A DNA stretch of 63,061 nucleotides, filler included, from Octopus bimaculoides (GCF_001194135.2; 4 parts of 4 records of this genome joined end to end with filler, not necessarily neighbours in it), one strand, 5' to 3'; shown: positions 4,479-58,158, numbered from the whole stretch's first letter. Notes: generated by a model not told the origin, from the sequence alone. Translations and numbers: made by a program.

Positions 4479-4520
4479 AGCTGCTACTCAGATTTTCACA
4501 TTCCTGTTCGTCAGGTAGTT
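4479..4520 (-). ncRNA. Degenerate minimal type I hammerhead ribozyme
   Basis: AACTAC-CTGACGA-ACA ggaa TGT-GAAA-ATCTGAG-TA-GCAGCT. Core intact, stem II 3 bp, stem I pairs 4 of 6, one stem III mismatch. Confidence 0.5.
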
Positions 4521-4825
4521 GAAATATATATAAAAATTCAGGATTCGAGTGAATCAGGTACCTGAATAGAAAAGCACCAAGTTCGGGTCAAAGAAATAGC
4601 AGTCGTATACAAAACAAAATTAGAGGAACATATACGTACATACGAAGCACAGATTGATTAATATTCCAGTTGCATACACGATCACAAGCGACTGAATATA
4701 CCATGAGTCTCAAGGAACGCACACTGCTCCAATTGTACTACACTTAGTAGACTCCAGATCTATGTTAAAAGCAGATTCCGAGTATGGTGAATAACGAACA
4801 AATAACAATAGATAGTATTGGTTCG

Positions 4826-4914
4826 TTCACTACAGCTGTTTCAAACGAGTTTTTTTTTTTTTTTTGATAAATAGAGTTACTACATTATGAAAAAATCCGT
4901 TTTCATCAGGTGAA
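4826..4914 (-). ncRNA. Type I hammerhead ribozyme with enlarged stem II and palindromic stem III
   Basis: TTCAC-CTGATGA-AAACG..CGTTT-GAAA-CAGCTG-TA-GTGAA. Stem I is 5/5, the stem II base is 5/5, ACAGCTGT is a palindrome, and the predicted GUA cleavage falls between 4831 and 4830. Confidence 0.8.
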
Positions 4915-5249
4915 TAATATACAAGAATTAAACATTTAAAAAAATGTTTATATCTTTTAACTCGCTCATTATCTCTTAATGTTTTCTGGCTGGAACTTTG
5001 ACGTCCAGTTATTTAAAGATTGAAAAGAAAATAAACAACCTTATCTTTTGAAGTTAGAGCAGAATATCAAATTCTCATCCTCTATTCTATATTCTTCAGA
5101 ACTGCTCCTCGCCTCCCTCCCCGCTCCTGTCACCTTAATGATTTTCTTGTGTAAACTACTAACTAGGGTAAGCGAATCATTCTTTGGCTGAAAGAGGTAA
5201 GGAAATCATGAAGTGACACATAATGTTGATTCTTGGAATGTTTTTTTTT

Positions 5250-5355
5250 TAATGTTTAATTCGTGTATATTCACCCGATGAAAACGTTTTATTTTTTTCG
5301 CATGATGTAATAACTCTATTCATCAACAAAAACAAACTCATTTCAAACAATAGAC
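5250..5355 (+). repeat. Decayed inverted copy of the 4830-4940 hammerhead-bearing repeat
   Basis: aatgtttaatt..tattcacCCGATGAaaacg..taactctatt..aaactcatttCAAA is the reverse complement of 4830-4940 with many substitutions; the 3' core is lost. Confidence 0.75.
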
Positions 5356-8300
5356 AACTGATGCTATTTGTATGTATGTATGTATGTATGTATGTATGCA
5401 TGCATGCAGGTAGGTAGGTAGGTAGGTAGGTAGGTTGATAGATAGATAGATAGATAGATAGATAGATAGATAGATAGATAGATAGATAGATAGATAGATA
5501 TGAATATATACATATACAATGTACAAACGAACACAATGCTTCAAAATTTCTCAGCATGGAATGTAAAGTAGTAGATAAATAAATAATGACAACATCGAGT
5601 AAATTCAAAAAGACTTTTTAAGTATAGTATCATCATGTTTCACCCTTTGATACCTCGAGGAAAAACGTACGCACACGCACAAATGCACATACAGAGACAC
5701 ACGCAAACACACACATATACATATATGTGTATTGGCTACTTTGCTATTATTCCCCTGGATCTTTCCTATAAATTGAACACTCATACATATATACGTATAT
5801 ATATTATATATATGTATGCATGTATATATGTATAGGCTTTTATATATATATATATATATATATATATATATATATATAGGGAGAATTCACAATAAAAACA
5901 CAAAAGACGATGACAGGTGGTGTAGAAAACAAACAGACGTATTAGTATAACGCTCGGGAATAGAGAAAGTCTTTANNNNNNNNNNNNNNNNNNNNNNNNN
6001 NNNNNNNNNNNNNNNNNNNNNNNNNNNNNNNNNNNNNNNNNNNNNNNNNNNNNNNNNNNNNNNNNNNNNNNNNNNNNNNNNNNNNNNNNNNNNNNNNNNN
6101 NNNNNNNNNNNNNNNNNNNNNNNNNNNNNNNNNNNNNNNNNNNNNNNNNNNNNNNNNNNNNNNNNNNNNNNNNNNNNNNNNNNNNNNNNNNNNNNNNNNN
6201 NNNNNNNNNNNNNNNNNNNNNNNNNNNNNNNNNNNNNNNNNNNNNNNNNNNNNNNNNNNNNNNNNNNNNNNNNNNNNNNNNNNNNNNNNNNNNNNNNNNN
6301 NNNNNNNNNNNNNNNNNNNNNNNNNNNNNNNNNNNNNNNNNNNNNNNNNNNNNNNNNNNNNNNNNNNNNNNNNNNNNNNNNNNNNNNNNNNNNNNNNNNN
6401 NNNNNNNNNNNNNNNNNNNNNNNNNNNNNNNNNNNNNNNNNNNNNNNNNNNNNNNNNNNNNNNNNNNNNNNNNNNNNNNNNNNNNNNNNNNNNNNNNNNN
6501 NNNNNNNNNNNNNNNNNNNNNNNNNNNNNNNNNNNNNNNNNNNNNNNNNNNNNNNNNNNNNNNNNNNNNNNNNNNNNNNNNNNNNNNNNNNNATATATAT
6601 GTTCATCTTTATTTCACAGTTGCTAAAAACTACAATATATTTTTCTACAATCATTTACTTTCATATTTTAAACATTTTGTTATTATTCTTGTTACTGTTT
6701 CAGTTATTGTGTGCCTTTCTTTTTCTTCCTTCTTTCCTTTTTTTCCGATAGATTTCCGTTTGGTTTAGATAATCCATTTGGTTCAATTATGAAGCGACAT
6801 TTTCAAAAGAACAAGGTCATTTTTCAAAAAAGTAACGTTAAGGACTAAAGGCTTAGAAAATGACAAATGTCTGGATGTCGGTTGCTCAGTGAAAATAAAT
6901 ACATTTTAAAAAAAAAACTGTCAATGGTGAATTTAATATTAAAATTAAGCAACACAGGAATGTCGTCTGCGACTGTGAGTGTTTCTGTGGCTGCTGCTGT
7001 TGCCAATATAGTATTCCGTCTTAGTGTTATTGTGGTGTTAAATATGATTGTTTTTACTGTTTGTTTGGTTGGTTAGGTCCTGGTTTGTCTTTTACTTTTG
7101 AAGCAACCATAAATTATATCAACAAAGAAATAAAAAAAAGAATTACAAAATGGGAAAATAGATAGTGGCATAGGTAGATAGAGGCGATATACGTTGAAAC
7201 GGAAACGACACAGGAGGTAAAAAAAACCATACATGTACAGAGATATATGTAGATACATCAGCAGATCTGTATACATGCGTGTGTGTGTGTGTGTGTGTAT
7301 AAATATGTGTCTATATGTGTGCATATATATATATATATATATATATATATATATATATATATATATATATATATATATATACACATATATATATACAGAT
7401 GGGGAGTCTGTGTATTTCGACAAAAATATACTGTGATACATTACAGTAAGATTAGGAGACACGTATATACACATAAATACATCCAAATGTATAGAGATGA
7501 CTAAGCTGTCACTAAAAATATACTTATGAATTCATGTTAATATACGTAGATTAACTATTTCTATTATAACAGTAACTCTCAAACTTTCACTTCTCCCCTA
7601 ACTCTCTCTCTCTCTCTTTCTCTCTCTCTCTCTCTCTCTCTCTTTCTCATTTATTTATTTACGTGATGTATGTATTTGTGTATGTATGTGTGTGTATATA
7701 TATATATATATACAAAAAACATATATACATATACTAGATACGTATATATAATACATATATACATGCATAAATATATGTGCATATATATATATATATATAT
7801 ATGTATATATATANNNNNNNNNNNNNNNNNNNNNNNNNNNNNNNNNNNNNNNNNNNNNNNNNNNNNNNNNNNNNNNNNNNNNNNNNNNNNNNNNNNNNNN
7901 NNNNNNNNNNNNNNNNNNNNNNNNNNNNNNNNNNNNNNNNNNNNNNNNNNNNNNNNNNNNNNNNNNNNNNNNNNNNNNNNNNNNNNNNNNNNNNNNNNNN
8001 NNNNNNNNNNNNNNNNNNNNNNNNNNNNNNNNNNNNNNNNNNNNNNNNNNNNNNNNNNNNNNNNNNNNNNNNNNNNNNNNNNNNNNNNNNNNNNNNNNNN
8101 NNNNNNNNNNNNNNNNNNNNNNNNNNNNNNNNNNNNNNNNNNNNNNNNNNNNNNNNNNNNNNNNNNNNNNNNNNNNNNNNNNNNNNNNNNNNNNNNNNNN
8201 NNNNNNNNNNNNNNNNNNNNNNNNNNNNNNNNNNNNNNNNNNNNNNNNNNNNNNNNNNNNNNNNNNNNNNNNNNNNNNNNNNNNNNNNNNNNNNNNNNNN

Positions 8301-57280: not shown

Positions 57281-57290
57281 CAAGATGGCG
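57281..57290 (+). promoter_or_regulatory. YY1-like motif CAAGATGGCG in a small GC-rich island
   Basis: Motif match only. Confidence 0.2.
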
Positions 57291-57359
57291 ACTTAGCTAA
57301 TCAAGCTTCCCGCCACTCACCGCCACATCTAACGCCATCACTGCACTTTTTCATTGCTC

Positions 57360-57970
57360 ATTTCCCTTTGTTTGTTTGTTTGTTTCTTTTTTCTTTCTTT
57401 CTCTCTTTTCCCCTTTATTCTCTCTTCACCACTCACATTCCTTTTTTCTTCTCATTCTTTTATTCTTCTCCTTATATTTTCTCCCTTTATCTTCACTCTC
57501 TTCTCCTACTTCACGTTCCTTTGTAATTCTATCCAAATTTTCGTTCAGTGTTCTCCCTCGTTCATTCGTTCTATTTTCCTTTCATCCTTTTATTTCCTTC
57601 ATTATTCTATTCAATCTAATATTATTTTCTTTTTCCTGTTTTCTCAATTTCTTTCGTTTTCTCTTTTTCTTTCTCGCTGTCAATCTTCATTCTTTCTTCC
57701 CTTCTTCCTTCCAACTTTTCTTTCTTGCTTTTTTTATTACGTTGTTTTATATTTTTCTCTCTTATTCCTCATTCTGTCACCTTTTCTTCCTACCTTTGTC
57801 GTTTCCTCTTTCTGTTTTAACTTTCAATTTTTGGCCGTCCACTTCTATCATTTTCCATTTCCTCCGTTTCTCAACTCTTCTTCCTTCGTTCTCTTTCATT
57901 TTTATTTCGCCTCTCATTCTTTCTTTTCCTTTGCCCCAGTCTTAATCCTCACTTCCTCTCTTCAGCTTCA
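57360..57970 (+). repeat. Polypyrimidine low-complexity tract of about 600 nt
   Basis: Direct reading; explains the F/L/S-rich ORFs. Confidence 0.9.
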
Positions 57971-58115
57971 GACACCAATTGATTTTTTGTTTTGAAAATT
58001 TCAAATTTCAACACACGTATGATTAATCGTGATAATTACGAAAATCATAATAATTTGAGTGGAGAAATTAGAATTAAGAAGTTTCCAGCGCAGCTCCGAT
58101 TATCCGAGATTATTT

Positions 58116-58158
58116 CTCACTGAGGAGCTGAAATCAAATCGAAACACCGGTGTCTGAT
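58116..58158 (+). ncRNA. Minimal type I hammerhead-like motif with a GUC site
   Basis: cTCA-CTGAGGA-G..C-GAAA-CACCGGTG-TC-TGAt. ACACCGGTGT is a perfect 10-nt palindrome; stem II is weak. Confidence 0.55.

Follow-up and report, generated by a model that had tools for sequence, protein, structure and literature searches.

Mostly decayed minimal hammerheads and a predicted rearranged hammerhead layout in retroelement ends of an Octopus bimaculoides sequence

Hammerhead-like sequences recur throughout a 63,061-nucleotide stretch of Octopus bimaculoides DNA (four parts of records in GCF_001194135.2, joined end to end with filler), which we call the window. A first-pass annotation of this sequence had reported about 15 minimal type I hammerhead motifs between positions 4479 and 58158. 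This raises the question of which of these sequences are still organized as ribozymes, and whether all of them are of one kind. Our analysis indicates that the window quite probably contains two sets of hammerheads, both located in the ends of retroelements. One set consists of the listed type I motifs, which are mostly decayed. The other consists of three related families, designated F, G1 and G2, whose rearranged motif is predicted to cleave in cis and which likely derive from Penelope-like elements (PLEs) of the Naiad type. The window is AT-rich, rich in microsatellites and interrupted by 29 assembly gaps.

A predicted split hammerhead core in three related families

In addition to the motifs in the earlier list, we found six copies or pieces of copies belonging to families F, G1 and G2, at 238 (-), 17631 (+), 18952 (-), 19214 (+), 25644 (+) and 60539 (-). 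All six retain CUGANGA with no GAAA after it; a GAAA is found 26-29 bases before it. The hammerhead blocks occur in the non-circular order of cleavage site, GAAA and CUGAUGA (S-G-C). The conserved core bases and the UH cleavage site are complete in three of the six copies; of the remaining three, two carry a single lesion and the third is truncated.

From 5' to 3', the strands of the motif are the 5' strand of a helix that we call X, a hairpin Z, the 5' strand of stem II, the 5' strand of a further helix W, the 3' strand of stem III, UH, the 3' strand of stem I and a short linker. These are followed by the 3' strand of stem II, GAAA, the 5' strand of stem III, the 3' strand of W, the 5' strand of stem I, CUGAUGA and the 3' strand of X. 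The 5' strand of stem II lies 22-25 bases upstream of the cleavage site, and its partner precedes GAAA. Four of five copies form five or six Watson-Crick pairs in this upstream stem II, beginning with G-C, and the decayed copy at 18952 forms three. Helix X pairs the sequence after CUGAUGA with a far-upstream strand, and hairpin Z is situated between the two upstream strands. In the inferred fold, with the stem II 5' strand upstream, A9 and G10.1 would be linked via a four-way junction rather than directly, and this junction has no unpaired base in G1 and G2. Helix W (6-9 bp) joins the far ends of stems I and II; it is decayed in the G2 copy of the window, where the majority letters of the family restore it. 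At the cleavage site, stem I has 4-7 bp and stem III 3-5 bp. The copies and their parts are as follows.

17524..17654, plus strand: family G1 split-core motif, best-preserved copy; stem I 7 bp, stem II 5 bp, stem III 4 bp, W 9 bp
G1 copy, 5' part, plus strand: X 5' strand to 17539; Z 17540-17567; stem II 5' strand from G10.1 at 17568; W 5' strand 17575-17583
G1 copy, cleavage block, plus strand: U16.1 at 17590; H17 at 17591, with the predicted cut after it; stem I 3' strand 17592-17598; GAAA 17605-17608
G1 copy, 3' part, plus strand: stem I 5' strand 17624-17630; CUGAUGA 17631-17637; X 3' strand from 17638
60403..60680, minus strand: family G2 split-core motif with 3' tail; stem I 7 bp, stem II 6 bp, stem III 4 bp, X 5 bp
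G2 copy, 5' part and cleavage site, minus strand: X 5' strand ends at 60663; Z 60662-60605; G10.1 at 60604; U16.1 at 60582; H17 at 60581
G2 copy, 3' part, minus strand: GAAA 60566-60563; CUGAUGA 60539-60533
111..378, minus strand: family F, core intact, Z partly decayed; stem I 4 bp, stem II 5 bp, stem III 5 bp, X 6 bp
F copy at 111..378, parts, minus strand: CUGAGGA at 238; GAAA at 267; U16.1 at 285; G10.1 at 308; X 5' strand ends at 341
18855..19047, minus strand: family F, left arm of an inverted pair; U16.1C; stops at (TA)n, tail lacking
19119..19341, plus strand: family F, right arm of the same pair; G12A; 34-base tail at 19308-19341, then (TA)n
25616..25778, plus strand: family G1, truncated immediately 5' of GAAA and therefore lacking the cleavage block; has CUGACGA at 25644 and a 3' tail

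Type II and local type I readings of these copies were rejected, since no UH with a matching stem I directly follows GAAA.

Support for the split layout

When we scanned the window for all six block orders, only SGC and GCS gave matches (three each), with shuffle means of at most 0.05. A compact S-G-C descriptor recovered the three copies with an intact core, versus none in 500 shuffles, and relaxing G12 and U16.1 brought the number to five copies versus a shuffle mean of 0.014. Four copies were also tested by shuffling the 40 upstream bases; per copy, a cleavage block of the same quality appeared in 6-22 out of 20000 trials. The corresponding numbers for the junction in upstream shuffles were 141 of 5000 for G1 and 2 of 5000 for G2.

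Covariation, based on five informative copies, is found in each of the three stems. The strands of stem I are CUGUCUU/GAGACAG, CUGCCCU/GGGGCAG and UUGUCG/CGACAA in different families. In stem III, pair 15.4-16.4 is U-A or C-G, and pair 15.2-16.2 is C-G or U-A. Families F and G differ in the sequence of stem II (GAAGA/UCUUC versus GAGCA/UGCUC), and G10.1-C11.1 occurs in all five copies that retain this position.

The nested ensemble computed for the G1 copy is dominated by X (pair probabilities 0.72-0.92) and Z (0.94-1.0). Stem II, stem I and W with stem III cross one another and share the ensemble (0.37, 0.38 and 0.15, respectively); the z-score for this copy is -2.1. A short Rfam scan of this copy gave no ribozyme match.

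An alternative arrangement has to be considered, in which the motif is a plain type SGC hammerhead: stem II would form directly after CUGAUGA-A with the bases before GAAA, and X and Z would be an inactive alternative fold. Between three and five such pairs, starting with G-C and G-U, are possible in all five informative copies, and both the block order and the short linker connecting stem I with stem II are those of the SGC motif that has been tested. However, the probability of these pairs is near 0 in every fold that we computed, whereas X and Z exceed 0.7 in the G1 copy. A common change at 60528 (see below) removes the fourth pair. In published Naiad consensus sequences, moreover, the motifs from Acropora, Pomphorhynchus and Clytia, as read by eye, cannot form the first pair in that register. 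We therefore regard a plain SGC fold as unlikely.

The GCS matches raise a further possibility, namely that the core cuts a second UH site in the 3' tail, instead of or besides the upstream site. Such a UH-like site is present in both F and G tails, at 19321-19332, 25719-25730, 60462-60451 and 130-119. It lies in a conserved ACGUCCUGU that could form three or four stem III pairs and four stem I pairs in G copies, and a common variant of the site (60461) keeps the pairing. Type GCS was in fact our first reading, and we demoted it because the upstream site has longer, covarying stems. Stem I would have 4 bp, compared with 7 bp upstream, its first pair is a mismatch in F, and the site is 70-100 bases distant. 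The tail is already explained as a feature of the start of reverse transcription in PLEs, and one F arm has no tail. Cleavage in the tail consequently seems very improbable to us. As a separate observation, contig depth is higher over the F/G tail than over the core, which suggests that more families share the tail.

Variation among G2 relatives and RNA reads

The split layout can be compared with other copies of the G2-type family. Runs labelled organism A and organism B contain part of 60400-61100, and the family is abundant under either label, in RNA as well as in DNA. The summed depth of contigs points to a very large number of copies, although depth is not a copy number. We aligned reads and contigs of G2 relatives to 60400-60720 at 80% likeness and considered the 40 best-supported of 89 differences, each as a single site. 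Among these 40, no difference affects a conserved core base, stem II or stem III. Pairing is kept by the differences at 60542 (C to U), 60597 (C to U), 60596/60548 and 60549 and by most of those at 60551; viewed by helix, most changes in W and the one at the third position of stem I preserve pairing. At 60528, a common change from G to A strengthens helix X and breaks the contiguous stem II of the plain SGC fold.

We also considered whether RNA ends mark the predicted cut. Two RNA runs of the same species label, X21 and X22, sampled at about 6 in 100 of each run and apparently unstranded, contributed 2221 and 1775 aligned reads, and neither shows an accumulation of molecule starts or ends at any position. 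The test is a weak one, since decayed copies, present on both strands, predominate. A similar result is known from Anolis, where a PLE with a cleaving ribozyme likewise left no read ends (Frangieh 2024, PMC11167929). The Anolis hammerhead needed the element's protein and was dispensable for insertion in vitro (PMC11167929), and for this reason any activity of the F and G motifs may also be conditional.

Comparison with permuted hammerheads

Layouts of the hammerhead were counted by Eckert 2023 (PMC10085705), who obtained six on the assumption of three unbreakable blocks. The F/G layout lies outside these six permutations. Moreover, the descriptors used in that work specify CUGAUGAG or CUGAUGAUG followed directly by stem II, and a split form is therefore excluded from them. 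Of the permuted types, SGC and CSG were validated by in vitro cleavage; they come from environmental sequence only, with CSG found in two sequences.

Several features are common to these SGC and CSG examples and the motif in the window: a ring of blocks in non-circular order, stems that form a pseudoknot, a short linker leading from stem I to stem II, a helix that connects these two stems at their far ends, and retention of all core bases. In addition, nematode Naiad consensus sequences can be read as contiguous CSG (see below). The two differ in origin and in construction. The published examples are from metatranscriptomes and metagenomes, with no known host and with block C unbroken, whereas the motif in the window belongs to an animal repeat and has a four-way junction between stem II and CUGAUGA. 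The non-LTR (long terminal repeat) retrozymes of animals (bioRxiv 10.64898/2026.07.22.740005) resemble our families as non-coding, hammerhead-bearing derivatives of PLEs. They differ in that tandem repeats are described for them, with no mention of a permuted hammerhead in the available part of that paper, while the window has no tandem monomer array.

In the literature that we searched, there is no report of a permuted or split hammerhead in Naiads or cephalopods; Lunse 2017, subscription papers and Repbase notes may bear on novelty. The available parts of Perreault 2011, Weinberg 2019, Forgia 2023 and a 2026 Nucleic Acids Research paper describe no helix inserted at A9/G10.1. The last of these cites hammerhead variants with 'additional helices'. 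We regard the F/G motif as a layout that is new within a known ribozyme class; the structural support for it is good, and its activity is predicted.

Pattern scans for relatives of the F/G motif returned 20 metagenome and two viral matches, which we read as chance except for those in L008 and L018, and further scans returned none. L008 and L018 (in L018 at about 470-385, minus strand) contain two tandem hammerhead units, the second with a complete core. The stem I strands appear to be cross-complementary between the units, as in a double hammerhead that folds in cis, and an inverted relative lies upstream.

Likely relationship to Naiad elements

Naiads are a PLE clade for which the absence of canonical hammerheads has been reported (Craig 2021, PMC8557442), and this absence was taken as a sign that PLEs may not need them. 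In the same paper, some Naiad families are flagged as having a core or half-core only; eight of the families, among them ones from Octopus and Euprymna, are flagged as half-core. We examined the published Naiad consensus file by eye around matches to CUGAUGA, CUGACGA and CUGAGGA and at the ends of entries; for CUGAAGA, the reading covers only places 4-10 of 43, and matches across line ends are missed.

In this reading, the split layout is found at the 3' end of 11 consensus entries: Bfor, 3_Chem, Amil, Aacu (with two mismatches), Anas, 2_Movir, Plae, Obim, Ovul, Esco (with an imperfect stem II) and one further entry. The hosts of the ten named entries are a ctenophore, cnidarians, an acanthocephalan and cephalopods. 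The first pair of helix X covaries among these entries, being A-U, U-A or C-G. Six nematode entries have the contiguous type CSG with long stems, again as judged by eye. In two Octopus entries, stem I equals the first six pairs of stem I in the G2 copy of the window. As an unrelated observation, letters at the 3' end of the Naiad-1_Movir entry (Craig 2021, File S5) resemble the 3' part of twister ribozymes.

The families in the window resemble Naiads (PMC8557442) in their (TA)n ends, inverted truncated copies, 30-40 base tail and presence in a cephalopod, as well as in having the same 3' motif as the published consensus sequences. The F pair at 18855-19341 illustrates this pattern: its arms are head-to-head, with (TA)n on both sides and the 34-base tail on one arm only. 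Such insertion hallmarks have been given for Naiads and other PLE clades (Craig 2021). Outside stem I, the sequence of F and G is unlike that of the published Octopus consensus. Because of the 3' motif and the insertion pattern, with no open reading frame (ORF) attached, we assign F, G1 and G2 to Naiad-type PLEs as the likely source. A protein search with the translated G1 copy gave no match.

Taking the window and the consensus sequences together, we are inclined to think that Naiads across animals carry non-circularly permuted hammerheads: type CSG in nematodes and, elsewhere, a seventh layout with a four-way junction at A9/G10.1. If this is true, it would overturn the reported absence of hammerheads from Naiads, and the related question in PLE biology of whether hammerheads are needed would become directly testable. 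It would also represent the first non-circular RNA permutation at high copy number in genomes of known organisms, and would mean that the hammerhead core stays functional despite an interruption taken to be impossible. A family that spans multiple phyla would, in addition, yield identified hosts, a large number of sequences that covary and a plausible path between the layouts.

Predicted mechanism and possible role

The predicted F/G fold can be described as the C-S-G ring, i.e., the class that includes CSG, SGC and GCS, opened between A9 and G10.1. Since the split form amounts to the CSG ring opened at this position, either of the two could have arisen from its counterpart. The four-way junction would be created by helix X and hairpin Z; it would hold A9 beside the G10.1-C11.1 pair and thereby take over from the direct backbone connection, or the one additional nucleotide, found in other hammerheads. 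The contact of stem I with stem II would have its equivalent in helix W.

The predicted cuts fall after 17591 (+), 60581 (-) and 284 (-), and would occur only when transcription has passed CUGAUGA and the 3' strand of X. Stem III is made of two separate strands and is non-palindromic in G2 and F, and so a dimer should not be needed. The likely job of the motif would be to process read-through or tandem transcripts of the element near its 3' end, a role that has been proposed for hammerheads in other PLEs. Most genomic copies would be passive relics.

Weighing the interpretation

It is important to consider the observations that weigh against this interpretation, which concern the window, the related copies and the Naiad comparison. 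Within the window, there are only three related families with five informative copies, hairpin Z is imperfect in the F copy at 238, and two F copies have core lesions. The complete fold, with its pseudoknot, is beyond what nested folding models can score. The copies in the window are short 3' pieces, and none of them is linked to a Naiad ORF, which would have an N-terminal GIY-YIG domain, a CxC motif and a C-terminal reverse transcriptase. Among G2 relatives, outer pairs of stem I are broken by 60545 G to U (in about 40-75%) and 60574 U to A (in about 23-82%), and helix W is broken by the difference at 60552 and part of those at 60551. These data give no haplotypes, and 60611-60720, which holds the 5' strand of X and hairpin Z, lies outside the read coverage. 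The lack of a pile-up of read ends in X21 and X22 belongs here as well. For the Naiads, at least 53 families are listed, of which we parsed 17 by eye; several CUGACGA sites and two others did not fit, and further families are truncated. Finally, PMC10085705 assumed that CUGAnGA is inseparable from stem II, and we found no experiment in the literature on a break between the two.

Some of these points suggest a different interpretation, in which the motif, though conserved, is not catalytic or is inactive, and might for instance bind a protein or serve in packaging as a descendant of a hammerhead. The RNA without an end pile-up would fit this interpretation, and a break beside A9 could disable the core. 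In PLEs, moreover, hammerhead activity is weak and can depend on a protein of the element, and catalytic mutants showed unreduced insertion in vitro. On the other hand, all catalytic bases and the UH are retained between families with diverged stems, and in several animal phyla. Such retention points to selection on catalysis, and we accordingly give a non-catalytic structure a small chance and prefer a ribozyme with the split layout.

The listed minimal type I motifs

The motifs reported in the first-pass annotation remain to be placed. All 15 positions do correspond to hammerhead-like or hammerhead-derived sequence within repeats, on both strands, and self-comparison of the window bears out that they belong to several repeat families. 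Their palindromic stem III and short stem I also fit the hammerheads of PLE terminal repeats, as had been suggested. The claim that a full pattern recurs 15 times holds for hammerhead letters, which are present at all 15 sites, and fails for the complete motif: CUGANGA, GAAA and UH occur in the order C-G-S at six of the 15, and only four of these also have stem I (4826-, 10711-, 25897+ and 58116+). At 4479- and 23484- the core letters are kept, with broken stems. Lesions in the core or cleavage site affect the other nine: G12C and truncation at 5270, U16.1C at 18139, A15.1G at 18402, G12A at 22638, loss of stem III at 23335, A6U at 34335, A6U and G8U at 44093, absence of UH and stem I at 39547, and two changes in CUGANGA at 48165. 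The copies that we delimited are as follows.

4826..4914, minus strand: minimal type I, core intact; stem I 5 bp, stem III palindromic; its inverted partner is the dead 5270 copy
10711..10796, minus strand: minimal type I, core intact; stem I 7 bp; stem II 2 bp, then a long insert
25897..25944, plus strand: minimal type I with U4C; purine mismatch atop stem II; same family as the damaged 23484 copy
58117..58157, plus strand: minimal type I, core intact; stem III palindrome of 10 bases; stem II 1 bp, mostly lost
4479..4520, minus strand: decayed minimal type I; core letters kept, stems I and III mismatched
5270..5345, plus strand: inverted copy of the 4826 family, dead and truncated
18116..18479, both strands: two decayed minimal type I motifs forming an inverted pair; U16.1C in 18139 (-), A15.1G in 18402 (+)
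22638..22700, plus strand: decayed minimal type I; G12A
23335..23380, minus strand: decayed type I; stem III lost
23484..23532, minus strand: type I of the 25897 family; stem I broken
34335..34465, plus strand: type I-like, family E; A6U; relatives at 44093 (A6U, G8U) and 5881-5974 (-)
44093..44184, plus strand: type I-like, family E; two core changes; stem I 4 bp
44808..45051, both strands: inverted pair of 3' halves of minimal hammerheads only; absent from the earlier list

The stem I pairs that had been quoted are all present: TTCAC/GTGAA at 4826, TTCTTCC/GGAAGAA at 10711, GTCT/AGAC at 25897, GTGC/GCAC at 18139, TAATAA/TTATTA at 22638 and GTCA/TGAC at 23335. The stem III palindrome is perfect at 4826, 10711, 25897, 58116, 34335, 44093 and 48165 and near-perfect at 22638, 4479, 18139 and 18402. 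Palindromes had been reported in several versions, and these exist with the qualification that ACTATTAGT was found only as a composite of two mutated copies. The G10.1-C11.1 pair is present at 58116, 22638, 23335 and 48165 and in family E, and is replaced by A-U or a mismatch at 4826, 10711, 18139, 18402 and 25897. Additional 3' half-motifs, not in the earlier list, occur at 44900-/44949+ and 61754-. Head-to-head inverted pairs, as in PLE insertions, are formed by 4826-/5270+, 18139-/18402+ and 44900-/44949+.

A type I descriptor gave 2-3 matches per setting, with shuffle means of 0-0.37. In each of five settings, none of 100 local dinucleotide shuffles reached the observed count, so the enrichment is real. 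With Rfam, 58114-58160 matches Hammerhead_1 at 16.2 bits, which is below the gathering score of 34. It was the sole match in the short scans that gave a clear result for listed sites (4400-5345, 25860-25990 and 58080-58230). The whole-window Rfam scan was dominated by microsatellite matches among those listed, with 257 others ranking lower.

Minimal hammerheads in PLEs comprise many families, mostly present as single truncated copies, and did not cleave as monomers and cleaved weakly as dimers (Cervera and de la Pena 2014, PMC4209133). The listed sites share with them the short stem I, the palindromic stem III, the multiplicity of families, the prevalence of single truncated copies and the occurrence of some opposite-strand pairs. 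They differ in that several families of the window close stem II by A-U or a purine mismatch and not by G10.1-C11.1, while families F and G are distinguished from them by another order of the blocks and by a stem III built from two true strands. The listed motifs are ordinary minimal hammerheads of the PLE type, most of them decayed, and already known in kind; the earlier listing was real but overstated.

It had also been proposed that the motifs lie in probable introns or intergenic DNA, where they could cut host transcripts. An account of the window based entirely on minimal type I hammerheads in introns with this ability could draw on the four near-intact sites and on the presence of G2-family sequence in RNA runs. 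Against it, 11 of the 15 sites are damaged, single minimal motifs did not cleave in vitro (PMC4209133), and no host exon was found. For the latter, we applied Pfam to the 300 longest of 455 unmasked open stretches in the window, and among these there is no clear host exon, reverse transcriptase (RT) domain or GIY-YIG domain. Since neither a host gene nor a PLE ORF was found, the cutting of host transcripts is unsupported, and we consider this account scarcely credible. The suggested linkage to an RT/GIY-YIG ORF is likewise not shown, with no PLE ORF confirmed in the window.

Three further observations concern the listed families. Family E (34339 and 44096; 5881-5974) retains core position 6 in two copies, where it is U in each case (CUGUUGA and CUGUUUA) beside a perfect stem II, which may reflect a dead master element or a core variant. 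One family with a palindromic stem III (23484-23528 on the minus strand, 25897-25944 on the plus strand, 61754 on the minus strand, and 44900/44949) has a purine before GAAA and an A after CUGAUGA, a combination that places a purine-purine mismatch atop stem II. Lastly, a 200-base self-inverted repeat at 10908-11108, flanked by CAA/GTT microsatellites, lies 110 bases from the 10711 hammerhead.

Other mobile-element remnants

A frameshifted open stretch at 38471-38677 (-) was initially taken as a putative piece of a PLE RT for its apparent likeness to the RT thumb. No search confirmed this: three matches look unrelated, other searches were empty, and the candidate was set aside. Among the 300 open stretches scanned with Pfam, the only findings are a zinc-binding remnant of a non-LTR element at 26560-27153 (-), corresponding to a zinc-finger C-terminus with a weak zf-RVT match below the cut-off, and a piece of a mariner-type transposase at 20635-20931 (+; PF01359). 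Two broken stretches resembling long interspersed nuclear elements, at 1894-3024 (-) and 32300-33500 (-), were recognized by eye.

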